This document shows positions 4,440 through 55,685 of a stretch of DNA of 64,000 bases, one piece after another. The DNA lies in IMG/VR virus record IMGVR_UViG_2928768511_000002, positions 11,660 through 75,659 of that record; one strand, 5' to 3'. How positions within the stretch are numbered: position 1 is the first letter of the stretch; every line of letters begins with the position of its first letter. The position numbers and the translations under genes were made by a program. The stretch comes from a virus. Its lineage: Duplodnaviria; Caudoviricetes. The notes below the pieces were generated by a model. The model was not told the DNA's origin and made no database searches. It saw only the letters and a list, made by a program, of their open reading frames with translations.

Positions 4440-4441
4440 CC

Positions 4442-8388: not shown

Positions 8389-8454
8389 GCGCATGGGCGC
8401 GGCCCGGTCTCCAAAACCGTGTGTCCGCTGGTTCGAATCCAGCCACGGATGCCA
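8381..8454 (+). tRNA. tRNA-Trp(CCA), atypical
   Basis: Loop CTCCAAA, perfect T arm GCTGG-TTCGAAT-CCAGC, G73 and CCA; short D region; 5' end overlaps the HNH stop. Confidence 0.7.
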
Positions 8455-8473
8455 ACCAAATGCACTGTGCTGC

Positions 8474-8501
8474 GAGAGTTCAAGTCTCTCCCCCGGTGCC
8501 A
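8474..8501 (+). pseudogene. Orphan tRNA 3' half
   Basis: GAGAG-TTCAAGT-CTCTC T arm plus CCCCGGT-G-CCA, with no matching 5' half upstream. Confidence 0.55.
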
Positions 8502-8519
8502 AACAAAAAAAGAAGAACG

Positions 8520-10358
8520 ATGGGCACGTTACGCTACCAGGTGCTGTCCCCGAGCGGCATCAGCATTGGCACGGACTTCTATGCGCTAAACTCGATCGTC
8601 ACCCTGACGGAAGAGGGCGCGAAGTACCTTCTACTCAACAGGCAGATCTGTCTTGCAACTGGTCAGCAGGCGCCGGCCGGCCAGCCGCCGGCTCCCAACG
8701 AGGACGACGTCTATCTCGACGTTCGGTACAACGGCGTCATCGAGACGATATCGCTCACGAAGCTGCGCTCGATGTTTCCGAGCATCAAGGGCGATGCTGG
8801 TCCGCTAGGTCCGAAGGGGCCCGCCGGCCCGCAGGGCGAGAAGGGACTCAAGGGCGACACCGGGCGCGGCATTGCGCTCAAGGGCATTGTCGCAACCAAT
8901 CTCGATCTGCCGTCCAGTGCCGAGGAGGGAGATGTCTGGCTCGCTGAAGAGACCGGCCGCGGTTACGCCTGGTCTGACGGCAATTGGAAAGACATCGGCG
9001 CCTTCCGTGGTCCGCAAGGCGGCCAAGGACCGGCTGGTCCCGCCGGCCCGCGCGGTCTGAAGGGCGATCAGGGCGTTCCTGGCCCGAAGGGCGAGGCGGG
9101 GCTTAAGGGTGATCCTGGCGATCCGGGCAATCCGACGTACGCCTATCGGGCAGAAGCCGGCATGACGGCAGCTGAAGCATCAGCGACGTCTGCTGCCGCC
9201 AGCAACGCATCCGCGGCCAATCACGAGGCCAACGCGCGATCCTACAAGCAGGGGGCTGAGACCGCCGCAACGAACGCCGCCGCCAGCGAAACGTCAGCGA
9301 ACCAGCACATGGTTGACGCAGCGGCGTCGCGAGACGCGGCTGCTGGTAGCGCGCTCAGCGCCGGCACTTCGGCGGGCGTAGCGACGACGGCGGCCGGCAG
9401 TGCGCAGGGATACGCAACCTCCGCACAGACCTCCGCTGAAACTGCAGTAAGCGCTCAGAACGCTGCGGCCGACGCCGTGACCAAGATCAACGAGTTCAAG
9501 GGCATCTACTACGGTGGTCTCACCGCTGATCCCGCGTCTGATCCGCTTGGCGCCGCGCCGAACGGTGGCGACTTCTACTTCAACACCACGACCAAGAAAT
9601 TCCGCGCCTACGATAGCACGGCCTGGAACGACATGGTGTCGGTTGGAACGCTGAAGCGCTTCATCTTCTCGGCCGGCGCCGGGCAGACGACGTTCACGGG
9701 CGCCGACGCCTTCACCAGGACGCTGGCCTACACCCCAGGCGCGGTCGAGGTCGTGGTCAACGGCATGTGGCTGCCATACAGCGACTACACGGCCAACAAC
9801 GGCACGTCTATCGTGCTGAACACGCCGTGCGCTGGCACCGACGTCGTTTACGTGTTTGCCATGAGCGCCTACAGCGCGGCCGACACCCTGCAGAAGTCGG
9901 CGAACGGCTCTGACATCCTCGACAAGGCTGCGTTCCGTAGCAATCTCGGCCTTGGTACCGCCGTAGGTCAGATCGGCCAGCGTCTCGTTGCTCAGGGCTC
10001 CACTGGCAACCTCGTCACTGGCGTGCCGCAGACCTGCACCTCGATCCTGTTGCCGGTCGGCACCTGGGACATCGAGGCGCACGCGGTCTTTGGAGGTTCG
10101 GGCAGCACAGCGACGTCGGACTGGATCTCGATGTTGGCTGCAAGGGGAGCCACCGTTTCGGCTGGCGATACGGTCGGCGTCAGCATGCACACGCGCATGC
10201 CAAGTGGCTACGACTATTCGATCAATCACACACACCCGAAGAGCCGGATCACCTCCGACGGCACCTACACCATCTACCTGAACGCACAGGCGACGGTGAA
10301 CACCGGAACGGTTTTCAACTGCACCGGGACACTTCAAGCAATCAAGGTGGCGGCATAA
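8520..10358 (+). CDS. Collagen-repeat fibre protein
   Basis: Gly-X-Y runs, Ala/Ser-rich coiled region, GQTTFTG...LAYTPGAVEVVVNG fibre module; ATG at 8520 preferred over GTG 8385. Confidence 0.8.
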   Translation: MGTLRYQVLSPSGISIGTDFYALNSIVTLTEEGAKYLLLNRQICLATGQQAPAGQPPAPNEDDVYLDVRYNGVIETISLTKLRSMFPSIKGDAGPLGPKGPAGPQGEKGLKGDTGRGIALKGIVATNLDLPSSAEEGDVWLAEETGRGYAWSDGNWKDIGAFRGPQGGQGPAGPAGPRGLKGDQGVPGPKGEAGLKGDPGDPGNPTYAYRAEAGMTAAEASATSAAASNASAANHEANARSYKQGAETAATNAAASETSANQHMVDAAASRDAAAGSALSAGTSAGVATTAAGSAQGYATSAQTSAETAVSAQNAAADAVTKINEFKGIYYGGLTADPASDPLGAAPNGGDFYFNTTTKKFRAYDSTAWNDMVSVGTLKRFIFSAGAGQTTFTGADAFTRTLAYTPGAVEVVVNGMWLPYSDYTANNGTSIVLNTPCAGTDVVYVFAMSAYSAADTLQKSANGSDILDKAAFRSNLGLGTAVGQIGQRLVAQGSTGNLVTGVPQTCTSILLPVGTWDIEAHAVFGGSGSTATSDWISMLAARGATVSAGDTVGVSMHTRMPSGYDYSINHTHPKSRITSDGTYTIYLNAQATVNTGTVFNCTGTLQAIKVAA

Positions 10359-28102: not shown

Positions 28103-28318
28103 ATGGCAAAAGCAAAGAACGCGGCCACCGAAGAGGTGGTCGCGGTGGAGCCGCAGGCTCCCGAACCGGCTCCGATCATGTATGAGGTAACCCTGAACGG
28201 TCGCTTCACTCACATGGACTTTCCCTACCTGCCTTCGCATCACCACATCGTCGACAAGGCGATCTACGATGCGATGGTCGAAGCGGGGGTAGTTGCCGAT
28301 GTCAAGCAACTTTCCTGA
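28103..28318 (+). CDS. Small tail-module protein (71 aa)
   Basis: Coupled within the tail operon. Confidence 0.6.
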   Translation: MAKAKNAATEEVVAVEPQAPEPAPIMYEVTLNGRFTHMDFPYLPSHHHIVDKAIYDAMVEAGVVADVKQLS

Positions 28319-29993
28319 GCTTGTATTCAGCGACGACGAAGACTTCACGGCAGACCGATTGAACTTGGCGATGCAGGTGCTGGATCAGCGCCTGCGTTCG
28401 CTGGAGCCTTTTTCTCCGAGCTGGGAGCAGGCGGTCAACGATCTGCGTCTGGTCGGACTCTCTCGACTGAACGACGCCATCCTGCCGGCGTATCAGCGCA
28501 TCCAGCTGCTGTCCACGCTCGGCTTCCTGTTTGCTGGCTCGTCCAGCGAAGTCACTCTTACCCAGGACATGACCGCGACGTTTGTCATTGACGACGAGAC
28601 GGAAAAGTCCCTGTTCACCCCGACGCCATTCCTGGCGCTGACCCGCTCCTCGACGATCGATGACTATGCGATTGCGCAGTTGATCTCGTATGAGCAGGCG
28701 ACCGGCACCTTGATGGTGAAGGTCAAATCGATCACCGGCAGCCCTGGTCCTTTCACGGACTGGCAGATCGGCGCCTGTGCGGCGTCAACCATCGCGGCGA
28801 TGGCCTACTTCACGCAGATCGATGCGGCCCGCAACGCAGCCAACGTTGCAAAGGCAGCAACAGCTGCCGACCGCGTACAGACCGGTCTCGACCGCATCCA
28901 GACGGGTGTGGATCGGAATGCCGCGGCGCAGTCGGCTGTAGCAGCGTCTGCCTCTGCTGACCGAGCCGGCACCTGGGATCCGACCAACTACGCCCTCAAG
29001 TCGTATGTGGACGGCAAGATCCAAGCGCTGGTCGGCACCGCGCCGGCCACCCTCGACACGCTCGCGGAAATCGCGGCGCAGATGCAGGCGGACGAGAGCG
29101 GCTTTGCCGCGCTGTCCACCACGGTCTCCGGCAAGCTGACGGCAACGCAGAACCTGAACGACCTGACCGACAAGGCACAGGCTCGCATCAATCTGGGCGT
29201 CACTTTCGCCAACCCGACCAGCAAGTCGGGCCTAACGGCGGCGAACGGGTCGGCCGTTACCTACATGCGGTCTGATGCTGCACCTGCGATCGACGTTTCG
29301 ATCGCGCCGACCTGGACCAACAAGCACATCTTCCAGTGGAACTCTGGAGCGACATACTGCATCAACGTCCAGACCTATGGCGGCTTGACCATCTACGCGC
29401 CGGACCAGGGCTCGGCGTTCATGACGTTCCATCGCGGCGCATACGCGAGCCAGTTTGGGCTCGACGGTGACAACTACTACCGATGGGGTGGTTGGTCGGA
29501 TGGTGCTGGCGGAGTCCGTATGTACCTGAGCCCTGGTGGCTTGTTGTACAGTGCAGGTTACGGCGCCTCGACGACGCCTGTTGGTGGTCAGGTGCGCGCG
29601 GCCGGCGACATCATCTACGGCCTGTCGGATCAACGTCTGAAGGACGACATCCAGATCATTGAAGATGCTCTGGAGAAGATCGACCAGCTCGATGGCGTCA
29701 CCTGGGTTCAGAGCGATCTGGCCCGCGAGGTTGGTGCACCGGTTCAAGACCGTCGCAAGGCCGGTCTGTTGGCGCAGCAGCTGGAGAAGGTTCTGCCCGA
29801 AGCGGTCGGCCTGGCTCCGTTCGACACGAACAAGCTGATGAAGAGCCGTACGGGCTTGAACCTGCTGAACATCCAGTACGAGCAGGTTTCTGGTCTGCTG
29901 GTGGAAGGCATCAAGGCGCTGAAGCGCAAGAACGACGCGCTCGAAGACCGAGTCGCACGGCTCGAAGCGATCATCGAGAAGCTGGGGGTGTAA
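28299..29993 (+). CDS. Tail fibre with C-terminal peptidase S74 intramolecular chaperone
   Basis: APATLDTLAEIA fibre motif; SDQRLKDDIQII...AGLLAQQLEKVLPEAV...QYEQVSGLLVEGIKAL. Confidence 0.9.
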   Translation: MSSNFPELVFSDDEDFTADRLNLAMQVLDQRLRSLEPFSPSWEQAVNDLRLVGLSRLNDAILPAYQRIQLLSTLGFLFAGSSSEVTLTQDMTATFVIDDETEKSLFTPTPFLALTRSSTIDDYAIAQLISYEQATGTLMVKVKSITGSPGPFTDWQIGACAASTIAAMAYFTQIDAARNAANVAKAATAADRVQTGLDRIQTGVDRNAAAQSAVAASASADRAGTWDPTNYALKSYVDGKIQALVGTAPATLDTLAEIAAQMQADESGFAALSTTVSGKLTATQNLNDLTDKAQARINLGVTFANPTSKSGLTAANGSAVTYMRSDAAPAIDVSIAPTWTNKHIFQWNSGATYCINVQTYGGLTIYAPDQGSAFMTFHRGAYASQFGLDGDNYYRWGGWSDGAGGVRMYLSPGGLLYSAGYGASTTPVGGQVRAAGDIIYGLSDQRLKDDIQIIEDALEKIDQLDGVTWVQSDLAREVGAPVQDRRKAGLLAQQLEKVLPEAVGLAPFDTNKLMKSRTGLNLLNIQYEQVSGLLVEGIKALKRKNDALEDRVARLEAIIEKLGV

Positions 29994-29994: not shown

Positions 29995-30228
29995 ATGGCC
30001 GTTCCGTCATCTGGCGCTGTCGGCTTCTCGACCGTCAACTCCGTCTTCGGCTACGGCATCGCGATGAGCAGCTACGTCGGCCGGCCCTACTACTACTACG
30101 AAGTGAACTGGGGCGTTAGGTCCGGCACCTTCCCAGGCTCCAACTTCCCGATGTCTCTCTTCTACGGGAAATCCAACCACGACGAATGGAACTGCGCCTG
30201 CGCCTGCGCCTGCGCGTGCGGCAAGTGA
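29995..30228 (+). CDS. 77-aa protein with C-terminal (Cys-Ala)4-Cys motif; candidate modified substrate
   Basis: MAVPSSGAVGFS...MSLFYGKS...EWNCACACACACGK. Confidence 0.8.
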   Translation: MAVPSSGAVGFSTVNSVFGYGIAMSSYVGRPYYYYEVNWGVRSGTFPGSNFPMSLFYGKSNHDEWNCACACACACGK

Positions 30229-30234
30229 GGATCA

Positions 30235-30555
30235 ATGACCAAGCCACCGAGCACCACCTTCAGCTACCGGATCAATCACTGGAGCAAGGACGGCTGGGCT
30301 CGAGTCGAGTATCGGCACGAGACGCTCGGTAGCTTGGTCAAGCAGGTCTTCATCCCGCTGAACCATTCGGAAGAGGAGCAGCGTGGCGCCGTCATCATGC
30401 AGTTCCCCTGGCAATCCTTCCACGCCAGGTATCTTGAAATGTTGGCGCAGGCGGCTGCTCCGGCCCCTGCGGCAATGGAAGGACAATTCACGCACCGCAT
30501 CGATCGTCCCATGGAGGATCCGGTCGGTTTGCCCATGGAAACCCAAAAGGTGTAG
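30235..30555 (+). CDS. Hypothetical protein (106 aa)
   Basis: GAGG RBS overlapping the previous stop. Confidence 0.7.
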   Translation: MTKPPSTTFSYRINHWSKDGWARVEYRHETLGSLVKQVFIPLNHSEEEQRGAVIMQFPWQSFHARYLEMLAQAAAPAPAAMEGQFTHRIDRPMEDPVGLPMETQKV

Positions 30556-30557
30556 CG

Positions 30558-31103
30558 ATGCAGTTCAGGCGCATCCGTTTCGAGAACTTCACGATCACGA
30601 TCTTCACGGCGCATGCCGGCGAAGAGAGGGTCTGTCCTCCGTCTGAACTAACCCGCGGCCTGACCGCGTCAGACGCTCCGGCCATCGCTCACCTGCTCGA
30701 AGGCAAGGATGATGCTCGGCCGCTCCACACCATTCCGGTGTACACCAAGGGAGGCTTCGAGGCTCTCGGCGGCGATCACGCGCCGGACCCTCGCCCGGCT
30801 GGTAGCGGCGCCACTCAGTTCGTGAGGGGCATCGACAACTACAAGCTCCGCGCCACAGCGGCGGATAGCGAATATCACTGCATCACCCCGAAGAGCAAAG
30901 AGCCGGTGTTCTGGCAGCGCTCATTCGTCGGCGGGAAGGCCGGCGACACGTTCGAGGTTCTGCCCAACAGCTACCTCTACATCGCAGAGGGCAAGATCGA
31001 GCTGGCTCACCGAACGTTCGTCGGCCCCACGATGCTTGAGATCACCAAGCCGCACACGGCCAAGATCACCGATCCGGTGATGGGCGCCAAGCTCTGGCGC
31101 TGA
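30558..31103 (+). CDS. Hypothetical protein, possibly cupin-like (181 aa)
   Basis: Beta-rich C-terminus SYLYIAEGKIEL...FVGPTMLEI. Confidence 0.6.
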   Translation: MQFRRIRFENFTITIFTAHAGEERVCPPSELTRGLTASDAPAIAHLLEGKDDARPLHTIPVYTKGGFEALGGDHAPDPRPAGSGATQFVRGIDNYKLRATAADSEYHCITPKSKEPVFWQRSFVGGKAGDTFEVLPNSYLYIAEGKIELAHRTFVGPTMLEITKPHTAKITDPVMGAKLWR

Positions 31104-31113
31104 AAGGAGCCCC

Positions 31114-31743
31114 ATGCCCACGATCCGCTTCCTGACGCCTGCCGACTTTGGCGATATGTGCGACATCATCGACAAGCACAGCAGCGGCATGGGCGCATGG
31201 TGCAACGATCCGAGCGCCCCGGTGAAACCGAACTTCCGCCAGCTCGCGAAGGACCATGTGGACCTTTGCTTCGAGCAGGCTATGTCGAACTTCTGGGGCT
31301 ATTTTGACGACTCCGGCAAGCTCGTCGCCTGGGTCAACTTCACCCGATGGGCTGATCCGATCAACATCACCATCCGCTCCGTAATCGAAGATCCGGACGC
31401 CGACCTGCCGCGCCGCGTTGGCGCTGTCTGGTCGGAAGCCGCGGTCGATCTGGTGAACTGGGGCATGGGGTACTTCTGGTCGGAGGGCGTCGAGAATTTC
31501 TGGTGCCGCATGTATGCCGGCAAAGAGGATCGGCACATCTCGGATCACCCCAACTGCATGCTGACTCAATACCAGCGCGAAAGGGTCAAGTTCATCCGGG
31601 CCGGCGAGCAACCGCCGCCCGAGTATCGCAGGGTCAGCTGGTCGCCGTTTGACGACGACACAGCGATCTATCGGTTCTCCGACACATTGCCGCTGCTGGC
31701 GTATCTCGAAAGTGCAAATGATCCGACTGGAAATGCTGAGTGA
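31114..31743 (+). CDS. Possible GNAT-fold protein (209 aa)
   Basis: N-terminal IRFLTPADF and WGYFDDSGKLVAWV strand pattern; fold call tentative. Confidence 0.5.
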   Translation: MPTIRFLTPADFGDMCDIIDKHSSGMGAWCNDPSAPVKPNFRQLAKDHVDLCFEQAMSNFWGYFDDSGKLVAWVNFTRWADPINITIRSVIEDPDADLPRRVGAVWSEAAVDLVNWGMGYFWSEGVENFWCRMYAGKEDRHISDHPNCMLTQYQRERVKFIRAGEQPPPEYRRVSWSPFDDDTAIYRFSDTLPLLAYLESANDPTGNAE

Positions 31744-33016
31744 GAACGGAGAGGTCGTGCCTCTGTTCTACGATCAGCACACCTCACGTCTGCTCGACAA
31801 GGACGGCTTCAAGGCCGTCGACTACACCAACAACCCGATGTATGACCCGGAGCCATCGCAGCGCCGGCCGTTCATCGCGGTGGACTACGATCAGCCAGGG
31901 CGTAAGGTCCGCGAGGTCCGGAAGCTGAAGATCCAGCTCGGCCTCGGCTGCAACAAGTCCTGCTCATACTGCCTCCAGGCGATACAGGTTCAGAAGGCCG
32001 CGGCGACAAGCACGCGGGATGCGTCGGAATTTCTGGCGAACATCGACGGCTGGATCGTCAACCCGGAGGGGATGGAGAAGGTCGAGCTTTGGGGTGGCGA
32101 GCCGCTGCTCTACTGGAAGAAGATCGAGATCCTCGCCCCGGCGTTGATCACGAAGTTCCCGAACGCTCAGTTCTCGATCATCACGAACGGCGAGCTGCTC
32201 ACTCGAGAGATCGTCGATCAGCTCAAGGCCTGGAATTTCTCTCTGACCATCAGCCACGATGGCCCGGGGCAGGCGGTAAGGGGAGACGACCCGTTCGAAG
32301 ACCCTCACAAATTTGCCATGATCCAGTACGCGCAGAAGACGTTTCATCCGCGCTTCTCGTTCAACGCTGTGCTCACCCCTAAGAGCCACGACGTCAACGC
32401 CATCATCGACTGGTTCCACGATTACTTCCCGGGCTGCAACGTCGGCTTCGAGGGAGTCGTTCACAGCTACGCCAGCGACCCGGCATCGATCTTCTCGATC
32501 GAGCAGTTGGCGCAGTTCAGCGACACGCTGTCCCGACAGCTGGCCGATGGATCGGCTCTCCGATCCCCGGCGATCATGGACAAGCTGCGCAGGTCGGTGA
32601 ACTCGTTCGTCAATGAGCAGTCCTCGAAGACGCTGTTCCAGAAGTGCGGCATGGACATGCCGGAGTATCTGGCGGTCGACCTGAAGGGCAACGTCATGAC
32701 CTGCCAGAACGTGGGCGCCAACGGCAACCACAAGATCGGGCACGTCAGCGACTTCGAGAACATCGCGCTCAACACCTCCAAGCACTGGAGCAAGCGCCCA
32801 GAGTGCCAGAGCTGCCCCGTGCTGCAGCTTTGCCAAGGCGCCTGCATGTACCAGGGAGGGGACAACTGGACGCACAGCTGCAACGCTGAGTTCTTCTACA
32901 ACCTGGCCTTCTTCAGGGCCGCGCTCTTCATCCTCACGGGACGATGGCTGGTTGGTTTCAGCGGCGACATCGTGCGTCCGAAACTGAAGAAGGATCGCGA
33001 TGTCGAAGTTCGCTGA
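31718..33016 (+). CDS. Radical SAM/SPASM domain enzyme
   Basis: CNKSCSYC (CxxxCxxC), WGGEPLL, ITNG, ISHDG; SPASM C-x13-G-x4-C ... CQSCPVLQLCQGAC ... C. Confidence 0.92.
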   Translation: MIRLEMLSENGEVVPLFYDQHTSRLLDKDGFKAVDYTNNPMYDPEPSQRRPFIAVDYDQPGRKVREVRKLKIQLGLGCNKSCSYCLQAIQVQKAAATSTRDASEFLANIDGWIVNPEGMEKVELWGGEPLLYWKKIEILAPALITKFPNAQFSIITNGELLTREIVDQLKAWNFSLTISHDGPGQAVRGDDPFEDPHKFAMIQYAQKTFHPRFSFNAVLTPKSHDVNAIIDWFHDYFPGCNVGFEGVVHSYASDPASIFSIEQLAQFSDTLSRQLADGSALRSPAIMDKLRRSVNSFVNEQSSKTLFQKCGMDMPEYLAVDLKGNVMTCQNVGANGNHKIGHVSDFENIALNTSKHWSKRPECQSCPVLQLCQGACMYQGGDNWTHSCNAEFFYNLAFFRAALFILTGRWLVGFSGDIVRPKLKKDRDVEVR

Positions 33017-33731
33017 ACTGGTGGGGATTCTTGACAAAATACCCCACCTGTTCTTAGAAAAGGCCTACGATGCGACACGTCTACAAAACGAGTTAGACGC
33101 CATCGATCCGGCACTTTTCGTGCCCTTCCGTTCCAAGAGCAGAAACGCTGACCACATCGCCGAGTTCTGGCGAGGTCTTTCGCTGGTCGCTCCGAGCGGA
33201 TCTCTCCATGACGATTTGACCGAGGTTCCATACGAAGGCCGTACAGGCTACGTCTGGACCCTGGTCGCCGAGAGCAGCCCCTACATCAAGCAGCTCGTGA
33301 CCGAGCTTGGCGGGGAGGGGCAGCGCGCGCGGCTCATGTGCGTGAAGGCAGGCGGCAGTCTGACCTGGCACCGCCATGGATCAGAGCTTTCGATGATCGT
33401 CGGCGCCCACGGCCGGCGGCCGAACTGGTACGAGCTGATCGTCCACGTCCCCATCCGCACCAACCCGGACTTCAGCTACGAGGTCATCGACACTCGGGTC
33501 TACGAGCTGGCGGACTACTCGGCCGGGAAGCTGGAGATCCACCGGAAGAACTACCCGCAGGGCGAGGCCTGGGCGTTCAACGGTGCTCACTACCACAACG
33601 TCTTCAACCGCTCCGAGACCGAAGACCGCTACGCCATCATGCTGACCCTCGACATCAGGATGAGGAAGACGTTCGACATCGTGTCGAAGGCGGTCGAGAG
33701 CTACGAGGGGCCACTCCTGACAGGGCTCTGA
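33000..33731 (+). CDS. Aspartyl/asparaginyl beta-hydroxylase-like 2OG-Fe(II) oxygenase
   Basis: RARLMCVKAGGSLTWHRH, IVHVPIRTNP, GEAWAFNGAHYHNVFN...RYAIML. Confidence 0.8.
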   Translation: MSKFAELVGILDKIPHLFLEKAYDATRLQNELDAIDPALFVPFRSKSRNADHIAEFWRGLSLVAPSGSLHDDLTEVPYEGRTGYVWTLVAESSPYIKQLVTELGGEGQRARLMCVKAGGSLTWHRHGSELSMIVGAHGRRPNWYELIVHVPIRTNPDFSYEVIDTRVYELADYSAGKLEIHRKNYPQGEAWAFNGAHYHNVFNRSETEDRYAIMLTLDIRMRKTFDIVSKAVESYEGPLLTGL

Positions 33732-34180: not shown

Positions 34181-34210
34181 GCCGCCCCCTTCCGGGCGGC
34201 CTTTTTGTTT
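34181..34210 (+). terminator. Intrinsic terminator
   Basis: GCCGCCC/GGGCGGC stem then CTTTTTGTTT. Confidence 0.65.
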
Positions 34211-47624: not shown

Positions 47625-48392
47625 CTATGGCTGCATTGACGCTGGCTCATGACGGGTTCCGGGCATCTCATCAAAAGTACGTCCCCGGTACTCGCGCCCG
47701 GTCTTGTCCTTGCGAACACCGCCCCATTGCTTAAAGAAGAACGCCGTCTCAGATCGACGGCACGCGGCCTCGATTTCGTGAACCCACTCCTCAAGCATTG
47801 GGCGGGATCGGGGTCCGCTCTCACCCCCTACAATAGCCCAATCGATACCCCTCAAGTTCGGGGCACCCATCGGCCCCAACAACGGCTCGAAGGAGATGAA
47901 ACGAACCGCCGCGCTCACCCGGCGCAACTCGTCGATGCGTGAAAGATAGGCCGCGTTCTCGACGCTAGTGCCTAGCCAAACATTCCGCAGTACCGGAAGG
48001 GACCGAGTGAGTTGCGCCATTCGATCCGGACGCTTCGTCAGGATTTGATACGTGTGCCACGGCGTTGAGCCCATCACGGCCCACACTTCTGCGACGAATT
48101 TCGCGGGTACAGCTTCGTGGAACAGGTCCGACATCGAATTAACAAAGATGCGTCGCGGCTTGCGCCACCTCTGGGGTACCCTAAGAGCACCTCGGTCCAG
48201 TCGTATCTTGCCGGTCCACACCGCCCGACGGCCGCTCTTGCGCGTCAGCCCACGGTATTTCTCCATTCCCATCGCTTCGAGCCGTGCCGCCATCCGCATG
48301 GCGTAGCAGTTGGTGCACCCCGGGGACAGGATCGTGCAGCCCGCCACAGGGTTCCAGGTCGCGTCCGTCCATTCGATTGAAGTGTCGGCCAT
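47625..48392 (-). CDS. DUF5131 (phage Gp37/Gp68) three-Cys radical-SAM-like protein
   Basis: IEWTDATWNPVAGC..SPGCTNCYA, IFVNSMSDLFH, LTKRP, WLGTSVE, SFEPLLG, VGGESG, FFFKQWGG. Confidence 0.92.
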   Translation of the reverse strand: MADTSIEWTDATWNPVAGCTILSPGCTNCYAMRMAARLEAMGMEKYRGLTRKSGRRAVWTGKIRLDRGALRVPQRWRKPRRIFVNSMSDLFHEAVPAKFVAEVWAVMGSTPWHTYQILTKRPDRMAQLTRSLPVLRNVWLGTSVENAAYLSRIDELRRVSAAVRFISFEPLLGPMGAPNLRGIDWAIVGGESGPRSRPMLEEWVHEIEAACRRSETAFFFKQWGGVRKDKTGREYRGRTFDEMPGTRHEPASMQP

Positions 48393-48402
48393 GAAGCTTT
48401 TC

Positions 48403-49242
48403 CTATCCGAACAACGACCTTTGACCTGTCAGGTTCTGCACGTCATTCCACAATTTGTGCCCATGCGGGTTGGAGCTAAGGAATACCAACCAATAAAGTC
48501 GCTGGTTCTGCTGTCCGACCACTAGCGGAATGCCCGTAGCTGGCTTTGAGCCGAGCGATCGGATCAGGCCCAACCAATATTCAATCAGGGCCGCACGCAA
48601 TGGCGCAATGGCTTGCCGAACGTTGATCGCATCTCGCCATCCCGGCGCGAAGTTGTTGAGGGTCGGATCGCCGATGCTGCTGTAATCATCGAGATTACGC
48701 TGTAGGTCAAATAGACTCACATGGATAATCATGTCCATGCGCCGAAACTTAAGCATCTTCTCGATTATCGAAAACGGTAGCTGACCTAGTGAAAAAGGGT
48801 CGAGAAACGCCAAATGCAAACCGTGCGGGTTGAGAGCGCCAAGGGCGCGGTCAACTATCTTGTCCGCGGGACCGTGGTAATTCTGCGCGACGCCCCCGAG
48901 CGCTTTAATGCGCTGCGCGACCGCATCACTGTTCACTTGCTCCAAATCCGAGAGGTGCAGATCGGTGAAAGGCATAGCGCTGGACTTAGCTGCTTTATAA
49001 GCTACCAACGCGCTACCATCGATAATCCGATTGCTACCGTCAATCAGCGAACGACCAGCACCAGAGTACAGTTCTATATAGCTTGCCGTTGCCCAACCTT
49101 TGGGAGGAACATATTTCGCCCGGGTCGGTCCAGCTGCGTCGATGTATTTTCGAAGTCGTTCATGCTTCTCCGTAGCCCACGGACCGACTTCACCGACGAT
49201 CAACCCATCGTCTGGATCAACTTTCACTGATTTCTTTGCCAA
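48403..49242 (-). CDS. tcmP: Three-Cys-motif partner protein (methyltransferase-like)
   Basis: VGPWATEKHERLRKYI, YIELYSGAG, AFLDPF; adjacent to DUF5131. Confidence 0.85.
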   Translation of the reverse strand: MAKKSVKVDPDDGLIVGEVGPWATEKHERLRKYIDAAGPTRAKYVPPKGWATASYIELYSGAGRSLIDGSNRIIDGSALVAYKAAKSSAMPFTDLHLSDLEQVNSDAVAQRIKALGGVAQNYHGPADKIVDRALGALNPHGLHLAFLDPFSLGQLPFSIIEKMLKFRRMDMIIHVSLFDLQRNLDDYSSIGDPTLNNFAPGWRDAINVRQAIAPLRAALIEYWLGLIRSLGSKPATGIPLVVGQQNQRLYWLVFLSSNPHGHKLWNDVQNLTGQRSLFG

Positions 49243-49616
49243 AGCCCCCTCCCACCCGCTGGTATGTTATAGCACCCAATTTGGGAGTGCTACCGCCAGT
49301 TGAGAAGAAATCAGAATTCGTTAACGACGGGCGAGGGTTCGCCTCACCTGTTATCTGTGCCCGTCGGGATGCGCCCAGGTAGCGCGGCTCTCGATCGGCC
49401 GTAGCGGCGCGTGCCGGCCTTTCTTGCACGACCGGTATTTCGTGCGGCCATTCGACTTTCGGGGGGTAAAGGTCGCTTGTCGCGGGAAAAAAGGTTAGAC
49501 TAATCCGGTTGATATGTGCGACTCGTCAACAATCGTGGACCGGTCAAGAGCCCGGCCGCCATCGCCCCGACTAGGGAAATCGAAGTTGAGGCGCGAAACT
49601 TGAGGGCAGGAAAGAT

Positions 49617-52397
49617 ATGAACCCGGTCGAAATCGAAGAAGCGATTTCGGCTCTCGCAGAGCAGCCATTCGACCCCCTCGAGTTTCCATTCGCTTTCCTC
49701 CAAGCGTTCGGGAACAAGGATACAACGATCAAGCGGCTGCGCTCGGGTGCGTCTAACAAGTCCGATTTGGGCGGCGTCCTGCAAACGAACAATATCCACA
49801 TCGCCGTCTGTCCGCCGGGCGAGGCTACCAAGATGCTTGCCGCGCTGAAGGCCAGCCCGGCGACGACCAGGGCGAAGGCGCGATACATCCTCGCGACCGA
49901 CGGTGCGGACTTCGAGGCCGAGGACCTGGAATCGGACGATTCGCCGATTGCTTGTGCCTATCGAGACTTCCCTGATCACTTTGGTTTCTTCCTGCCACTC
50001 GCCGGTATCACCACCGTCAAGCAGGTGCGAGAAAGCTCCTTCGACATCCGGGCCACCAGCCGCCTGAACCGGCTCTACGTCGAGCTTCTCAAGGACAACC
50101 CCGAATGGGGCACGGCCGAGCGCCGCCCCGACATGAATCATTTCATGGCGCGGCTGATCTTCTGCTTTTTCGCCGAGGATACCGACATCTTCGGCGGCAC
50201 GCGCCGGTTCACCGCCACCGTCGAGCAGATGAGCGCCAAGGACTCGTCCAACACCCATGAGGTGATCGGTACTCTGTTTCGAGCCATGAACACAAAGAGG
50301 GAGGATCGCGCAGCGGCGAACATCCCCCGTTGGGCCGACCAGTTCCCCTATGTAAACGGCGGTCTCTTTTCGGGAAGCATGGATGTACCGCGCTTCAGCA
50401 GGATCGCGCGGTCCTACCTGCTGCACATCGGCAATCTCGACTGGACGAAGATCAACCCCGACATCTTCGGCTCGATGATACAGGCCGTTGCCGATGACGA
50501 AGAGCGCGGCGCGCTCGGCATGCATTACACCAGTGTGCCAAACATCTTGAAGGTGCTCAATCCGCTGTTTCTCGACGACCTGCGGGCGCGGCTTGAGGAA
50601 GCGGGCGACAATCCCCGCACATTGCTCAACCTCCGCAAGCGCATGTCGAAGATCAGGGTGTTCGATCCGGCTTGCGGCTCGGGCAACTTTCTTGTCATTG
50701 CTTACAAGGAGATGCGCGAGATCGAGGCCGAGATCAACCGGCGGCGCGGTGAGGCGGTCCGACGCTCGGAAATCCCGCTCACAAACTTTCGCGGCATCGA
50801 GCTGCGCGATTTCCCAGCAGAGGTCGCGCGTCTCGCCCTCATCATCGCGGAGTTTCAATGTGACGTGCTTTATCGCGGACAGAAGGAGGCGCTCGCCGAG
50901 TTTCTGCCGCTTGATGCGCAGAACTGGATCACCTGCGGCAACGCGCTGCGGCTAGATTGGCTCAGCATCTGTCCACCAACCGGTACAGGCGTGAAGCATC
51001 ACGCAGAAGACCTCTTTCACACCCCGCTCGATCAAGCGCAGATCGACTTTGAGAATGAGGGCGGAGAGACCTACATCTGCGGGAATCCACCATACTTGGG
51101 AAGCACTTGGCAAAGTGCTGAGCAGAAGGCTGACATTCGAACCCTTCTCCGGGGCCGAACATCGTCCAGTGGTTTCCTCGATTACGTAGCTGGCTGGTTC
51201 ATTAAGGCGGCTGACTATGGGACGAGAACGGATTCCGTAGCAGCGTTTGTGTCCACCAATTCCATCTGCCAGGGTCAATCCGTATCGATCCTGTGGCCTG
51301 TGCTGTTCGAGACGGGCTGCGATATCCGGTTCGCATATACCTCATTCAAATGGTCGAACTTGGCCAGCAACAAGGCGGGGGTTACTGTCGTCATAGTAGG
51401 GATCGGTTCACCCACAAGTGCGCCGCGCCGTCTCTATGAGCATGATGAACAGAATGGCGTTCTCATTCGCGAAGGAGCGTCGATCACGCCCTATCTGACG
51501 CTTGGACCTCGCATCATAGTTGAGAAGCGAGACGAACCAATCGGCCCCCTAAGCGTGATGGAGTTCGGAAATAAGCCTAGTGATGGCGGTCATCTGCTCT
51601 TACGTCCCGAAGAACTCGCCTCGCTTGGCCTGGATGATGGACAGCGTCGCAAATTCATCAGGCGAATATACGGCTCGGACGACTTCATCAACGGTGGTTG
51701 GCGGCTTTGCATTTGGATCGAGGATAATGATCTCAAGGAAGCTCAGTCTATTGAATCGCTCAAAGCGCGCATAGAAGCGGTTCGGCGTGTAAGGCTGGCG
51801 AGCCGAGATAAGGGGGCCAACGCCCTCGCAAAGCGAGCACACCAGCTTAAGTTGATGCGTATCGGGACGCGAAGCACGATTGTCGTACCTGGCGTTTCAT
51901 CTGAGCGAAGGCCCTACTTGACAGCAGGTCTCGTCGATGACCACACGACGCTGACCAACCTCGCATTTGGCCTGTATGACGCGCCACTGTGGAACATGGC
52001 GGTGGTCGCCTCACGGCTGCACCTCGTCTGGATCGCGACTGTCTGCGGCAAACTGGAAACGCGATACCGTTATTCCAACACCCTTGGCTGGAATACATTT
52101 CCAGTCCCGACGCTGACCGAGAAGAACAAGGCGGATCTTACCCGTTGCGCCGAGGACATCCTGCTGGCGCGTGAGGCGCATTTCCCGGCGACAATTGCTG
52201 ATCTCTACGATCCCGACAAGATGCCCTCTGATCTGCGCGAGGCGCACGAGCGCAACGACGAGGTGCTTGAACGTATCTATATCGGCCGGCGGTTCCGCAA
52301 CGACACCGAGCGGCTGGAAAAGCTCTTCGAGCTTTACACCAAAATGACCGCAGGACAGGGAACGACCAAAAAACGAAAGGCGGGGGCAAGCGCATGA
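49617..52397 (+). CDS. YeeA/MmeI-like N6-adenine DNA methyltransferase
   Basis: FDPACGSGNFL (motif I), GNPPY (motif IV), HYTS, C-terminal TRD-like region. Confidence 0.92.
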   Translation: MNPVEIEEAISALAEQPFDPLEFPFAFLQAFGNKDTTIKRLRSGASNKSDLGGVLQTNNIHIAVCPPGEATKMLAALKASPATTRAKARYILATDGADFEAEDLESDDSPIACAYRDFPDHFGFFLPLAGITTVKQVRESSFDIRATSRLNRLYVELLKDNPEWGTAERRPDMNHFMARLIFCFFAEDTDIFGGTRRFTATVEQMSAKDSSNTHEVIGTLFRAMNTKREDRAAANIPRWADQFPYVNGGLFSGSMDVPRFSRIARSYLLHIGNLDWTKINPDIFGSMIQAVADDEERGALGMHYTSVPNILKVLNPLFLDDLRARLEEAGDNPRTLLNLRKRMSKIRVFDPACGSGNFLVIAYKEMREIEAEINRRRGEAVRRSEIPLTNFRGIELRDFPAEVARLALIIAEFQCDVLYRGQKEALAEFLPLDAQNWITCGNALRLDWLSICPPTGTGVKHHAEDLFHTPLDQAQIDFENEGGETYICGNPPYLGSTWQSAEQKADIRTLLRGRTSSSGFLDYVAGWFIKAADYGTRTDSVAAFVSTNSICQGQSVSILWPVLFETGCDIRFAYTSFKWSNLASNKAGVTVVIVGIGSPTSAPRRLYEHDEQNGVLIREGASITPYLTLGPRIIVEKRDEPIGPLSVMEFGNKPSDGGHLLLRPEELASLGLDDGQRRKFIRRIYGSDDFINGGWRLCIWIEDNDLKEAQSIESLKARIEAVRRVRLASRDKGANALAKRAHQLKLMRIGTRSTIVVPGVSSERRPYLTAGLVDDHTTLTNLAFGLYDAPLWNMAVVASRLHLVWIATVCGKLETRYRYSNTLGWNTFPVPTLTEKNKADLTRCAEDILLAREAHFPATIADLYDPDKMPSDLREAHERNDEVLERIYIGRRFRNDTERLEKLFELYTKMTAGQGTTKKRKAGASA

Positions 52398-54460
52398 CGG
52401 ACGAAAAGAAATCAGTCCCTTCTGTTTCAGTCTCCTATGCCCGCAACGGTAGCTCGACCAAGGCCAATGCGCTTGGCATGCGGCCAATGCAGGAACGCGC
52501 CTATGAGCGGCGCGGTGAGCAATACCTGCTCATCAAGTCACCGCCCGCATCAGGCAAGAGCCGGGCGCTGATGTTCATCGCCCTCGACAAGCTCCATAAT
52601 CAGGGACTCAAGCAGGCGATCATCGTCGTGCCCGAGAAATCTATCGGCGCGAGCTTCCACGACGAGCCGCTGTCCAAGTTCGGCTTTTGGGCCGACTGGA
52701 CCGTTGCGCCCAACTGGAATCTCTGCGACGCGCCCGGAAACGACAATGGCGGTAAGGTCAATTCTGTCGGCGCCTTCCTTGATGGCGACGACAAGGTGCT
52801 AGTCTGCACCCACGCTACTTTCCGCTTCGCGGTGGACAAGTTCGGCGTCGAGGCGTTCGACGACCGGCTGATCGCCGTCGACGAATTTCACCACGTTTCT
52901 GCGAATCCGGACAACAAGCTCGGTCTTCATCTCGGCGAGTTCATCGCCCGCGACAAGGTTCACATCGTCGCGATGACCGGCTCTTATTTCAGGGGCGATG
53001 CCGAGGCCGTGCTGGCCCCGCGCGATGAAGCGAAGTTCGATACCGTCACTTACACGTATTATGAGCAGCTCAACGGCTACGAATACCTCAAGCGGCTCGA
53101 CATTGGCTACTTCTTTTATTCGGGCTCCTATGCCGATGATATCCTGAACGTGCTCGATCCGGCCGAGAAAACGATCATCCATATCCCGAGCGTCAACTCC
53201 CGTGAAAGCACGAAGGACAAGATCAAGGAGGTCGAGCACATCATCGAAGAGTTGGGCGCATGGCAGGGGCCTGACCCTGCGACTGGCTTCCAGCTGGTCA
53301 AGACACCGGCCGGCCGCGTGCTAAAAATCGCCGATCTGGTCGACGACGATTCCGCGAAGCGTGACCGCGTTTCTGCCGCGCTAAAAGACCCAGCGCAGAA
53401 GAACAACCGCGACCATGTAGATATCATCATCGCTCTTGGCATGGCGAAGGAAGGCTTCGACTGGATTTGGTGCGAGCACGCGCTGACGGTGGGCTACCGA
53501 TCGAGCCTCACCGAGATCGTGCAGATCATTGGCCGCGCGACCCGGGACGCTCCGGGCAAGACTCGCGCGCGCTTCTCCAACCTGATTGCCCAGCCGGACG
53601 CCGCCGACGAGGCCGTCAGCGAGGCGGTGAACGATACCTTGAAGGCGATAGCGGCGAGCCTGCTCATGGAGCAGGTACTTGCCCCTCGCTTCGAGTTCAA
53701 GCCGAAGAACCCCACGAGCGGCCCGGTGGAAGGGTTCGACTATGGGGACGGGGGCTACGACCCCAACAAATGCAATGTCGGCTTCAACGGAGACACGGGG
53801 CAATTCCAGATCGAGATCAAAGGTCTGACCGAACCAAAGAGCAAGGAAGCGGCTCGCATCTGCCAGGAAGATCTGAACGAGGTCATTGCCGCCTTCGTTC
53901 AGGACAAGACCGCTATCGAGCGCGGCCTATTCGACGAGGAGCTGGTGCCGGAGGACCTGACCGTTGTTCGGATGGGCAAGATCATCAAGGACAAATATCC
54001 AGAACTCGACGAGGAAGATCAGGAGGCGGTGCGCCAGCATGCCATCGCCGCCCTCAACCTGACGCAGCAGGCCAAAAAGATTGCGCTAGAGGGAGGGGCA
54101 GGCGGCGACCCCGAACAAAGCGCCAACACGGCCCTTATTGACGGCGTGCGGAGGTTTGCGATGGACGTCCGCGAACTCGACATCGACCTTATCGACCGGA
54201 TCAATCCGTTCGGCGAGGCTTACGCTATCCTCGCCAAGACGATGAGCGAGGACAGCTTGAAACAGGTGCAGGCGGCGATTTCCGCCAAGCGCACGAGCCT
54301 GACGCCTGGCGAAGCGAAGGAGCTCGCTCTGCGAGCCTTCAAATTCAAAAAGGAGCGGGGGCGGCTCCCCTCGATTAGTTCGACAGATGCCTGGGAAAAG
54401 CGGATGGCCGAAGGCGCTGCCGCCTTTGTTCGTTTCAAGGACGAGGGCCGCTATGACTGA
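52394..54460 (+). CDS. YeeB-like SF2 helicase/ATPase
   Basis: PPASGKS, DEFHH, MTGS, KEGFD, QIIGRATR. Confidence 0.9.
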   Translation: MTDEKKSVPSVSVSYARNGSSTKANALGMRPMQERAYERRGEQYLLIKSPPASGKSRALMFIALDKLHNQGLKQAIIVVPEKSIGASFHDEPLSKFGFWADWTVAPNWNLCDAPGNDNGGKVNSVGAFLDGDDKVLVCTHATFRFAVDKFGVEAFDDRLIAVDEFHHVSANPDNKLGLHLGEFIARDKVHIVAMTGSYFRGDAEAVLAPRDEAKFDTVTYTYYEQLNGYEYLKRLDIGYFFYSGSYADDILNVLDPAEKTIIHIPSVNSRESTKDKIKEVEHIIEELGAWQGPDPATGFQLVKTPAGRVLKIADLVDDDSAKRDRVSAALKDPAQKNNRDHVDIIIALGMAKEGFDWIWCEHALTVGYRSSLTEIVQIIGRATRDAPGKTRARFSNLIAQPDAADEAVSEAVNDTLKAIAASLLMEQVLAPRFEFKPKNPTSGPVEGFDYGDGGYDPNKCNVGFNGDTGQFQIEIKGLTEPKSKEAARICQEDLNEVIAAFVQDKTAIERGLFDEELVPEDLTVVRMGKIIKDKYPELDEEDQEAVRQHAIAALNLTQQAKKIALEGGAGGDPEQSANTALIDGVRRFAMDVRELDIDLIDRINPFGEAYAILAKTMSEDSLKQVQAAISAKRTSLTPGEAKELALRAFKFKKERGRLPSISSTDAWEKRMAEGAAAFVRFKDEGRYD

Positions 54461-55634
54461 CCTCGACCTCGACGAACTGCGCGCCGAACTTGACGACTTC
54501 GCTCAGCCCGAAAAGAAGGGCGGACGCTCCGCGCGCGAAGAACGCATCATTGCCGGGTTCGAAGAAGTCCAGCGCTTTTTCGAGGAGCACGGCCGCGCTC
54601 CGCAGCATGGCGAGGATAATGACATCTTCGAGCGACTCTATGCCGTGCGCCTCGACCGTCTGCGCGCACTTGAGGAATGTCGTTCGCTTCTTTCGCCGCT
54701 CGACTATCAGGGACTGTTGACAGGAGCGGAAAGCGCCCCCGCCGCTCCCGAAGAGGCGGTGGATGAGGACGAGTTGCTGGCCGAACTGAGGGATGCGGCA
54801 GGCGCATCCGATATTACCGAACTCCGCCACGTCCGCACCGCTGCCGACAAACGCGCAGCGGAGGAAATCGCCAATCGCGAGAAATGCGAGGACTTCGACC
54901 GATTCAAGCCTCTGTTCATTCAAGTCAAGAAGGACATCGATTCCGACATCCGCCAGACGCGGCCCTTCCAGACTATGGCCGAGATCAAGAAAGGCGAGTT
55001 CTTCATCGTCGGCGGCCAGATCGCCTATGTCGCGGAAGTTGGCGAGGAGTTCACGACGCAATATGAACGTCGTGACAGCCGACTGCGCGTCATCTATGAC
55101 AACGGTACCGAAAGCGACGTGCTGCTACGTTCGCTCCAGCGCGCGCTTCACCGCGACGAGGCGGGGAGGCGTATCACCGATCCCGTTGCGGGACCGCTGT
55201 TTGCCGGCGAGAGCGCCGAAGGCGACCTAGCCAGTGGTACGATTTACGTTCTGCGCAGTAAGTCCGACCACCCGCTAGTCGCAGCCCATCGCGATGTTCT
55301 GCACAAGATCGGCGTGACCAGCGGGGATGTGGAGCGACGTATCGCAAACGCGAAACTCGACCCTACATTTTTGATGGCCGAGGTGGAAGTCGTCGCGACT
55401 TACGAACTCTACAACGTCAATCGCACCAAGCTCGAAAACCTCATCCACCGCATCTTTGGCCTGGCTCAGCTCGATGTCGAGATCAAGGATCGCTTTGGGA
55501 ATCCAGTGATCCCGCGCGAATGGTTTCTTGTACCGCTGTTCGTGGTCAACGAAGCAGTTGATCGGATTAAGGACGGAACGATTACAGACTACACATACGA
55601 TCCGAAAGCAGCAGCATTGGTCCGTGTAGCCTGA
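54453..55634 (+). CDS. YeeC-like GIY-YIG (T5orf172) nuclease
   Basis: GTIYVLRS...HKIGVT...RRI...LENLIH...PREWF. Confidence 0.9.
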   Translation: MTDLDLDELRAELDDFAQPEKKGGRSAREERIIAGFEEVQRFFEEHGRAPQHGEDNDIFERLYAVRLDRLRALEECRSLLSPLDYQGLLTGAESAPAAPEEAVDEDELLAELRDAAGASDITELRHVRTAADKRAAEEIANREKCEDFDRFKPLFIQVKKDIDSDIRQTRPFQTMAEIKKGEFFIVGGQIAYVAEVGEEFTTQYERRDSRLRVIYDNGTESDVLLRSLQRALHRDEAGRRITDPVAGPLFAGESAEGDLASGTIYVLRSKSDHPLVAAHRDVLHKIGVTSGDVERRIANAKLDPTFLMAEVEVVATYELYNVNRTKLENLIHRIFGLAQLDVEIKDRFGNPVIPREWFLVPLFVVNEAVDRIKDGTITDYTYDPKAAALVRVA

Positions 55635-55685
55635 CTTCGATTGACGGCTTGCGTACAAATGGACCAAGACCGGAGTGAGGGAGCC

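Follow-up and report, generated by a model that had tools for sequence, protein, structure and literature searches.

A Bradyrhizobium myovirus prophage carries in its late operon a six-gene cassette (29995-33731) that is interpreted as a post-translational modification module of the prophage tail-fibre apparatus. In this reading, which is given a probability slightly above even (about 0.55), a radical SAM (rSAM)/SPASM enzyme acts on an alternating-cysteine ladder at the C terminus of a 77-residue protein, w77, and likely forms thioethers. All positions refer to the window, the 64,000-nucleotide stretch of viral DNA analyzed. Many unrelated phages share this pairing of ladder and rSAM enzyme, and it is therefore probable that phages modify the fibres with which they bind hosts. 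A sequence-only reading of the window had proposed either that RiPP-type chemistry matures a virion or fibre-tip component or that a modified peptide is secreted, and fusions of ladders to fibres together with the context of the w77 N-terminal module favour the first of these. Modification of a virion fibre accessory is the best reading of these sequence comparisons and is likelier than a secreted RiPP.

No description of such a phage radical SAM fibre system was found in the searchable literature. To our knowledge, thioether installation by SPASM enzymes is documented for peptide natural products, for the QhpC enzyme subunit and, since 2026, for archaeal CrpA, and radical SAM modification of a virion structural protein would be the first of its kind. 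If the reading is correct, thioether chemistry is a common, unrecognised step in the building of phage tail fibres with a bearing on fibre stability, host range and phage engineering, and protein-borne Cys-x-Cys ladders are a large new substrate class for enzymology. The window cassette is a good test bed that combines a single rSAM enzyme with a 77-residue substrate. It occurs in cultured Bradyrhizobium as part of prophages, homologues carry names from B. diazoefficiens and B. hipponense, and its boundaries are set through comparison with phages of other types.

The cassette, w77 and the N-terminal module

The six co-directional plus-strand ORFs first read in the sequence were recovered by the ORF check, overlapping or abutting one another (Table 1). 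Starting from the S74 fibre gene, which encodes a C-terminal intramolecular-chaperone domain (S74) and lies immediately upstream with 1 nt between its stop codon and the w77 ATG, the next junctions are gaps of 6 nt, 2 nt and 10 nt followed by overlaps of 26 nt and 17 nt. Pfam and PHROG matches bear out the S74 fibre and the tail sheath as flanks. The gene initially called BppU-like encodes a 140-residue protein that lacks a BppU match and instead matches tail-fibre-assembly families. It was not found by tblastn in two loci that retain the cassette (L011 and L012), and a terminator-like hairpin lies 3' of it at 34181-34200. The 140-residue gene is the end of the fibre transcription unit and is outside the conserved modification module.

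Table 1. Features of the cassette and its flanks in the window.
Feature	Coordinates	Strand	Evidence
S74 tail fibre	28293-29993	+	PF13884 51.8 bits, residues 445-505; phrog_1980 tail fibre 1.7e-25
w77, 77-aa ladder protein	29995-30228	+	translation and orthologues
w106, 106 aa	30235-30555	+	no profile match; homologues hold equal position in other phages
w181, 181 aa, bicupin fold	30558-31103	+	structure model
w209, 209 aa, GNAT fold	31114-31743	+	structure model and Foldseek
Radical SAM/SPASM enzyme, 432 aa from conserved ATG	31718-33016	+	PF04055, TIGR04085, phrog_1802
AspH-like cupin oxygenase, 243 aa	33000-33731	+	PF05118 sub-threshold; cupin motifs
Tail-fibre-assembly-like protein, 140 aa	33733-34155	+	phrog_1084 1.8e-9; phrog_3304 5.4e-6
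Tail sheath	about 34122/34221-35648		PF04984, PF17482, phrog_23

The translation of w77 ends in HDEWNCACACACACGK, and the (CA)4C tail noted originally is borne out. The ladder C-A-C-A-C-A-C-A-C occupies 30193-30219 and is followed by G-K, an invariant HDEWN motif (30178-30192) stands right before it, and its DNA is a 6-nt tandem repeat (30192-30220). The Cys positions are retained in 10 orthologous loci and 23 database homologues. The ORF is a real gene because these positions are kept through synonymous TGC/TGT codon changes and the residues in between vary. Across 18 homologues the cysteines are invariant or nearly so and are separated by A, D, N, V or M; judged from these alignments, the Cys positions are under selection.

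Residues 1-57 of w77 form a widespread N-terminal module that heads many larger phage proteins. The module profile (A7) has 342 representatives, most of them 150-525 aa long and matched over the first ~57 residues only. Conservation by segment of w77 is 0.86, 0.42, 0.89 and 0.84, and residues 34-45 (30094-30129) are a hypervariable loop inside the module. The window, L090/L091, L093, L088 and L085 each have a gene with this module shortly after an S74 fibre gene; the two are adjacent in all of them except L085, where DUF7936 sits between. The module heads the protein encoded right after the S74 fibre in many phages and is therefore a candidate dock that probably sits on that fibre. From gene order and domain fusions we infer that w77 is present in the virion.

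The arrangement of w77 also has the leader-plus-core look of a RiPP precursor: a Cys-rich core at the C terminus follows a conserved N-terminal part, and RiPP-type tailoring enzymes (rSAM/SPASM, GNAT and Asp/Asn hydroxylase) are encoded next to it. Residues 1-60 would then be the leader of a product such as a bacteriocin, a signal or a superinfection factor; it would be expressed under late control, and lysis would release it and could substitute for an exporter. Such a released product is improbable. Pfam, PHROG, NCBIfam and PDB profiles detected no leader peptidase, other peptidase, transporter or RRE family among the six genes, although such functions may be present without a profile match. 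Hundreds of larger phage proteins begin with the supposed leader as their N-terminal domain, several of their genes standing just after those of S74 fibres, and the hypervariable middle part of the leader is unusual for a recognition sequence. The same ladder moreover ends full-length fibres and precedes Hint domains, as described below.

Co-conservation of cysteine ladders with the rSAM clade

All six cassette genes are present in 10 related Bradyrhizobium prophage loci. Across 81 viral loci of the phrog_1802 rSAM clade, 1282 co-directional ORFs lie in the 4 kb upstream of the rSAM gene and 70 of them have alternating-Cys tails, versus 7 of 7608 elsewhere. When lineages are set at 70% rSAM identity (n = 25), a co-directional Cys-x-Cys ladder is found in 20 of them; two of the remaining five have no upstream DNA to inspect, and the three informative ones (L002, L057 and L061) have no ladder with at least 3 Cys. 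The Cys-tailed ORF is thus strongly co-conserved with the rSAM clade, as the sequence-only reading expected of a peptide and its maturase, and the neighbours are not the unrelated genes that it named as counting against this pairing, since tail fibres consistently adjoin. As in RiPP clusters, a ribosomal precursor adjoins the modifying enzyme and both are co-conserved. Other phage types, with rSAM enzymes 51-55% identical, repeat the gene order w77-w106-w181-GNAT-rSAM, and L007/L013 carry duplicates of the ladder gene as well as of the AspH-like gene.

Small proteins carry ladders, as do true tail fibres at their C terminus, and other ladders immediately precede a self-cleaving Hint domain. 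Tail-fibre PHROGs match ladder-ended proteins of 616 aa (1.8e-48), 429 aa (1.7e-34) and 391 aa (3.3e-10), the annotated side tail fibre of Ralstonia phage RSP15 ends in NCQCGN, and the last ladder Cys of Achromobacter phage JWF gp028 is residue 1 of its Hint domain. Among 65 distinct ladders, N, A, D or Q fills 76% of the positions three residues ahead of a ladder Cys, and the first Cys is preceded by N in 54 ladders. In the w77 of the window, four of the five candidate acceptors would be Glu or Ala rather than Asn.

The ladder could alternatively bind a metal or an Fe-S cluster at the axis of a fibre tip that is trimeric, and the rSAM enzyme would not consume the thiols; the enzyme may then cross-link or epimerise other residues, for example Trp65 or a Tyr, or use the ladder as a cluster ligand only. 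An analogy would be the His-x-His iron sites in the tip of T4 gp37 and in the spike tips of P2 and Mu. Alternate spacing places all Cys on one face of a β-strand, trimeric fibre types, collagen-repeat and S74 fibres among them, have ladders at their extreme end, and the ladder follows an aromatic-rich region and an invariant Trp. If the cysteines are not the substrate, it is hard to see why a SPASM enzyme accompanies them so tightly and almost universally, and the closest named relatives of the enzyme form Cys thioethers, which makes a pure metal site unlikely. For NxxcB, chelation of an auxiliary Fe-S cluster by the substrate Cys has been proposed (PMC9389541), which makes metal binding by the ladder plausible whichever reading holds.

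The rSAM/SPASM enzyme and its partner proteins

The rSAM enzyme has a start codon conserved among orthologues and carries the cluster motif CxxxCxxC at 31949-31972 (C78/C82/C85), which is invariant in the alignment (A1). The seven SPASM cysteines span residues 310-388 (32645-32881) in the pattern C310-x13-G-x4-C329, C363-x2-C366-x5-C372-x3-C376 and C388, all likewise invariant in A1. Scores above the cut-offs of PF04055 (42.9 bits, cut-off 29.5) and TIGR04085 (39.8 bits, cut-off 27) place the protein in the radical SAM superfamily and the SPASM subfamily, confirming the complete SPASM domain read from the sequence, and residues 48-393 place it in phrog_1802 (E = 2.2e-55). The best NCBIfam matches are the thioether maturases PapB (NF047865, 75.6 bits over residues 68-378, below the family cut-off of 340) and QhpD (TIGR03906, 65.5 bits, cut-off 453). 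The CrpC-type model TIGR04463 gives 47.7 bits against a cut-off of 525, so the enzyme is not a CrpC-family member. It lies far under every curated maturase cut-off, and the reaction type is therefore an analogy only.

Among solved structures, the nearest are a cyclopropylglycine synthase (8vpo, matched over the core only) and an anaerobic sulfatase maturase (4k36, full length; residues 71-397, E = 1e-10). Both enzymes perform chemistry other than thioether formation.

A sulfatase maturase-like oxidase that converts ladder Cys to formylglycine or dehydro residues, with aldehydes serving covalent attachment to the fibre or the host surface, is the least probable of the readings weighed here. 4k36 alone among solved structures aligns with the enzyme from end to end, SPASM part included, and the JWF homologue was formerly annotated as an anaerobic sulfatase maturase. 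The anaerobic sulfatase maturase model TIGR03942 nevertheless gives 43 bits against a cut-off of 349, below the family score, and the PapB and QhpD models score higher, so the best family matches are not sulfatase maturases. Sulfatases are recognized through the motif C/S-x-P/A-x-R; neither this motif nor a sulfatase gene was seen, the latter among the scanned neighbour genes of the window.

The other four cassette proteins were compared with profiles, and w181 and w209 also by structure model. Protein w106 has no match in Pfam, PHROG, NCBIfam or PDB profiles, but by its homologues at the same position in phages of other types (L087, 3.7e-8; L088, 3.6e-10) it is a conserved module member. The w181 model (pLDDT 70) has a bicupin fold of the pirin/YhaK/HutD type, with VIA-align Z scores of 10.2-10.6 to 6uts, 2vec, 5fcc and 3h7j over residues 1-181 and without the usual conserved His cluster; homologues occur in L087 and L088 (1e-17 to 1e-18). 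The possible GNAT assignment of w209 stands at the level of fold: with a model of pLDDT 83 and pTM 0.81, the Foldseek matches listed from the PDB are almost all GNAT-family acetyltransferases, including RimI (probability 1.00, TMt ≤0.76). There is no Pfam match, and the invariant N115-W-G-x-G119 is only part of the acyl-CoA-binding motif Q/R-x-x-G-x-G/A. The model makes w209 a candidate acyl or acetyl transferase, and its homologues lie directly upstream of the rSAM gene in L084, L085, L087 and L088. The AspH-like assignment of the last protein is tentative and draws on the invariant cupin metal motifs G-x5-HxH-x2-E and H-x3-N, on an invariant Arg that is a candidate for the 2OG-binding Arg of the family (H124/H126/E129/H199/R210 all invariant) and on homologues of 52-69% identity, several with a precomputed PF05118 match and some named aspartyl/asparaginyl beta-hydroxylase domain protein by NCBI; the window protein itself stays below the PF05118 cut-off (17.7 bits versus 22.6).

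Proposed modification and related systems

In the proposed mechanism, w77 would consist of the ~57-residue docking module and a five-Cys ladder that replaces a large distal domain. The ladder is the presumed rSAM substrate, and the enzyme would bond the sulfur of each ladder Cys to a carbon of the third residue upstream. The ladder would thus be read as overlapping E/N/A/D-x-x-C motifs to give beta-thioethers (ranthionines) of the NxxcB, PapB or CrpC kind. By analogy with these maturases, thioether cross-links on overlapping (N/A/D)xxC motifs are the most likely bond, and would leave a cross-linked tip that is short, rigid and oxidation-proof. This reading has against it the maturase scores far below cut-off, the other chemistry of the two nearest solved structures, the Glu and Ala acceptors of w77, the three informative lineages that have no ladder with at least 3 Cys, the fold-level or sub-threshold basis of the GNAT and AspH-like assignments, and a cassette in which no RiPP recognition element was identified. 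The AspH-like cupin may hydroxylate the invariant Asp63 or Asn66, or Asp/Asn within the ladders of orthologues; w209 may acylate an amine, either the N terminus or the invariant C-terminal Lys; and the w181 bicupin and w106 would be conserved helpers. Tentatively, and with somewhat less than even confidence, many phage lineages (myo-, sipho-, Ackermann- and T4-like) may covalently staple their receptor-binding apparatus at its far end through radical SAM chemistry, with w77 as an S74-docked cap bearing a host-recognition loop and with Hint self-cleavage exposing the ladder elsewhere.

PapB is an rSAM/SPASM enzyme that forms several Cys thioethers in one substrate, PapA, a short RiPP precursor with C-x3-D motifs (freyrasin, a ranthipeptide). 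It is the best-scoring named family for the phage enzyme and differs in context, which is cellular for PapB and a fibre operon for the phage enzyme. QhpD, also an rSAM/SPASM enzyme, links Cys with Asp/Glu within QhpC, a small subunit that remains in a protein complex, quinohemoprotein amine dehydrogenase. QhpC is the nearest precedent for a structural, non-exported product; it is a subunit of a periplasmic enzyme rather than a virion part and lacks an alternating ladder.

CrpC is a SPASM rSAM enzyme of Methanococcus voltae (TIGR04463) that installs several thioether (ranthionine) cross-links on the Cys-rich protein CrpA (PMC13692751). It likewise modifies the Cys-rich C-terminal region of an adjacently encoded protein rather than a short peptide, and CrpA, like w77, joins a conserved N-terminal part to repeated Cys motifs. 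The system differs in being archaeal and cellular, with 17-residue repeats and C-x-x-Q/D motifs, and phages go unmentioned in its description (PMC13692751). NxxcB, from the streptococcal RaS-RiPP system NxxcB/NxxcA, joins Cys to the Asn beta-carbon in NxxC and tolerates Ala, Gln and Asp (PMC9389541). These N/A/D/Q acceptors parallel the residues three positions before the ladder cysteines, a likeness at the level of the motif. The NxxcB substrate is a short, quorum-regulated peptide precursor, whereas the phage ladders are 3-9 overlapping motifs on a fibre-associated protein.

Within phrog_1802, whose generic name is 'radical SAM domain-containing protein', the records of JWF and RSP15 annotate no substrate or ladder. 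Their genes JWF gp030 and RSP15 ORF045 are 38-40% identical to the window rSAM and, in both of these cultured phages, lie among or just downstream of tail-fibre genes.

Cassette enzymes and their place in the late operon

The six co-directional plus-strand genes described by the sequence-only reading are present, and its assignment of a complete SPASM domain to the radical SAM enzyme (rSAM) was borne out. The enzyme has a canonical CxxxCxxC motif and the full seven-Cys SPASM pattern, all of which are invariant in an alignment of homologues of 35-84% identity, and it exceeds the cut-offs of the Pfam and TIGR04085 models. The predicted model of w209 (209 aa) is confident (pLDDT 83), and nearly all of the PDB matches listed for it are GNAT-family acetyltransferases. 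The model of w181 (181 aa) is a bicupin with Z scores of 10.2-10.6 to pirin YhhW, YhaK, HutD and BacB. The 243-aa AspH-like protein belongs to the cupins, has invariant HxH...E and H-x3-N motifs and matches the AspH family below threshold; some of its homologues have a precomputed PF05118 hit. w106 matched nothing, and comparison with DUF7936 revealed no relation. Profile searches of PDB sequences with w106, w209 and the AspH-like protein gave no match, and Atlas leads were weak (GNAT in 20% of one cluster and cupin in 22% of another). A DNA-level search of cultured phages returned 90 nt of the rSAM gene as its sole match.

The window comes from a provirus recorded in IMG/VR, and its nearest relatives are located in Bradyrhizobium genomes, with rSAM identities of 81-86%. 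Among 301 species-representative genomes sampled from the genus, rSAM occurs at high identity in two and weakly in one, a sporadic distribution that fits a prophage gene. The late operon has the gene order of a myovirus. A terminator-like hairpin lies downstream of the 140-aa gene that follows the cassette, and the cassette therefore appears to be a member of the baseplate/fibre transcription unit.

Window positions of the cassette and surrounding features
Feature	Position	Remark
657-aa tail-like protein	8385-10358	5' of terminase
Large terminase	13328	
Portal	14810	
Major head protein	18832	
Baseplate proteins	23700 and 24573	
752-aa tail protein	25826	
S74-chaperone tail fibre	28293-29993	directly before the six-gene cassette
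w77	29995-30228	77-aa ladder protein
w106	30235-30555	
w181	30558-31103	
w209	31114-31743	
rSAM	31718-33016	
AspH-like cupin	33000-33731	
140-aa fibre-assembly-like gene		3' of the cassette; then sheath, tube, tape measure
Terminator-like hairpin	34181-34200	

The sheath ORF is listed from a GTG at 34122, which places the hairpin within its first 30 codons. The PHROG sheath match begins only at residue 34, and the real start is probably near 34221. The 657-aa protein has tail and tail-fibre PHROG matches (phrog_819, 4.7e-36) and is encoded apart from the main tail module. The G+C content is 0.56-0.59 at 4000-8000 and 48000-58000 versus ~0.62 elsewhere, and these stretches may be module or prophage boundaries.

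The ladder protein and its association with tail fibres

Conservation marks the small w77 ORF as a genuine gene. The ten orthologous loci and the 23 homologues from databases share the blocks MAVP...FSTVNSVFGYG, FPGSNFPMSxFYGKS and HDEWN-C-x-C-x-C-x-C-[GS]-K, the last of which contains the alternating-Cys ladder. Changes in the Cys codons of orthologues are synonymous, and the residues between the Cys are variable. Residues 34-45 form a hypervariable loop rich in indels with a mean majority frequency of 0.42 versus 0.84-0.89 elsewhere. The ladder DNA is a tandem repeat of a 6-nt unit, and the variation in ladder length among relatives (4 to 6 Cys) would fit repeat slippage. A tblastn search of cultured phages with w77 gave no significant match.

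A search of 1.84 billion representatives with a profile built from w77 plus distant homologues retrieved 342 proteins at E<=1e-3. The short matches align end to end, and those fetched terminate in ladders. Most matches are proteins of 150-525 aa that align over the first ~57 residues only (the N-module) and continue into glycine-rich or other domains (PF21722, phrog_2295 and phrog_2056, 'tail fiber protein; host specificity'). N-module genes begin immediately 3' of an S74-chaperone fibre gene in database loci L090/L091 and L093, and the same position is occupied by w77 in the window and by its counterpart in the T4-like phage locus L088. This arrangement was not seen in the contexts of L084, L087 and L092. 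The N-module heads longer proteins and recurs behind S74 fibres, so by sequence comparison w77 corresponds to the N-terminal module that characterises a family of fibre-following proteins, with the large distal domain replaced by a Cys ladder. We infer that the N-module docks on the fibre. Release of w77 as a free RiPP is a less likely alternative.

Pairing of ladders with rSAM and the candidate chemistry

A profile scan of IMG/VR located rSAM at 78 loci outside the Bradyrhizobium group at 35-46% identity. ORFs with a C-terminal end containing at least three alternating Cys accounted for 70 of the 1282 co-directional ORFs up to 4 kb upstream of rSAM and 7 of the 7608 other ORFs. Grouping of the enzymes at 70% identity gave 25 lineages; 20 have a co-directional ladder, and two of the remaining five lack upstream DNA. 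Chance adjacency was rejected on these counts. Minus-strand ladder-like ORFs, which appear to be at least partly a mirror reading of the ladder repeat DNA (TGC-AAC backwards gives C-S), were discarded.

Ladders occur in three settings. The first is small proteins of 55-135 aa, often tandem paralogues. In the second, the ladder forms the C-terminal end of true tail fibres that have collagen repeats and PHROG tail-fibre matches down to 1.8e-48; a two-Cys version (NCQCGN) ends the annotated side tail fibre of Ralstonia phage RSP15. The third is internal, immediately N-terminal to a Hint (intein-like) domain. In gp028 of Achromobacter phage JWF (L001:4679-6130), the ladder spans residues 298-308 and its last Cys is residue 1 of the Hint domain, whose profile match starts at 308; self-cleavage would therefore leave a mature protein that ends in the ladder, possibly via a thioester. 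The tail fibres of L017, L072, L086, L089 and P0203 show the same layout.

The best named relatives of rSAM are the thioether maturases PapB and QhpD. All such matches score far under their cut-offs, and the enzyme can therefore be assigned to no characterised family. The ladder sequence itself suggests the chemistry. In the C-x-C-x-C geometry the residue at position -3 from each Cys is an x, and among 65 distinct ladders x is Asn in 53%, Ala in 18% and Asp in 8%, with Asn directly before the first Cys in 54. In NxxC motifs, NxxcB bonds the Cys to the Asn as a beta-thioether and also accepts Ala, Gln or Asp in place of the Asn (PMC9389541), and CrpC is a SPASM enzyme that makes thioethers on a protein (PMC13692751). 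By analogy, the candidate thioether pairs in w77 would be E64-C67, N66-C69, A68-C71, A70-C73 and A72-C75. Two less likely readings are that the ladder is a metal-binding site and that rSAM performs an anSME-like oxidation. Full-text literature searches on radical SAM enzymes, phage tail fibres, RiPPs and thioethers yielded no description of such a system, and the CrpA paper (PMC13692751) does not mention phages. Cys modification by rSAM/SPASM enzymes is known as a class; its biological setting and type of substrate would be new here.

Conservation of the helper genes

Within a subclade the cassette is conserved as a block, with helper homologues kept in relatives with 48-55% rSAM identity. The order in L088 is S74 fibre, 79-aa w77-like, w106-like, w181-like, fatty-acid-desaturase-family, GNAT-like and rSAM. 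L087 has w77-like, AspH-like, w106-like, w181-like, desaturase-like, GNAT-like and rSAM genes, with four 2OG-Fe(II) oxygenases several genes further on. L084 (T4-like) retains only the ladder protein, GNAT-like protein and rSAM. L085, a P2-like prophage of Phreatobacter stygius (CP039690), has S74 fibre, DUF7936, a 92-aa w77 homologue, GNAT-like, rSAM and sheath genes. This homologue (L085:6160-6435), which ends ...DFYGKVTFALSACACGDCA, is absent from the called genes and occupies what looks like a gap separating DUF7936 from the GNAT-like gene. An acylation link between the GNAT and the invariant C-terminal Lys was dropped, as L084 and L085 have the GNAT-like gene but not the Lys.

Distant loci have other helpers: an unnamed protein of ~255-300 aa occurs with one 2OG-Fe(II) oxygenase (phrog_81, PF13759) or with two. 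BLAST and hhalign gave no link from the Bradyrhizobium helpers to the distant-locus helpers c2 (the 2OG-Fe(II) oxygenase) and c3. With AspH-like or 2OG-Fe(II) helpers across the loci, most lineages thus pair rSAM with some type of oxygenase.

A related prophage of B. hipponense (L007/L013) has tandem ladder genes (4348-4581 and 4594-4812) and tandem AspH-like genes (8283-9017 and 9020-9766); the other related loci inspected mostly have one of each. The desaturase-family (PF00487) membrane protein of L087 (3584-4315) and L088 (3588-4328) lies inside the homologous cassette beside the GNAT-like gene, and the GNAT might therefore transfer a fatty acyl instead of an acetyl group; the window lacks such a gene. 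RSP15 ORF046 (L002:6129-6959) and an L087 protein (6304-7161) flank rSAM in unrelated phages and share, by eye only, the C-terminal motif PW.DY....D.W....(F/Y)(F/Y)GK.HP(F/Y)DM. These proteins may represent one more family of conserved helpers, with no match in Pfam.
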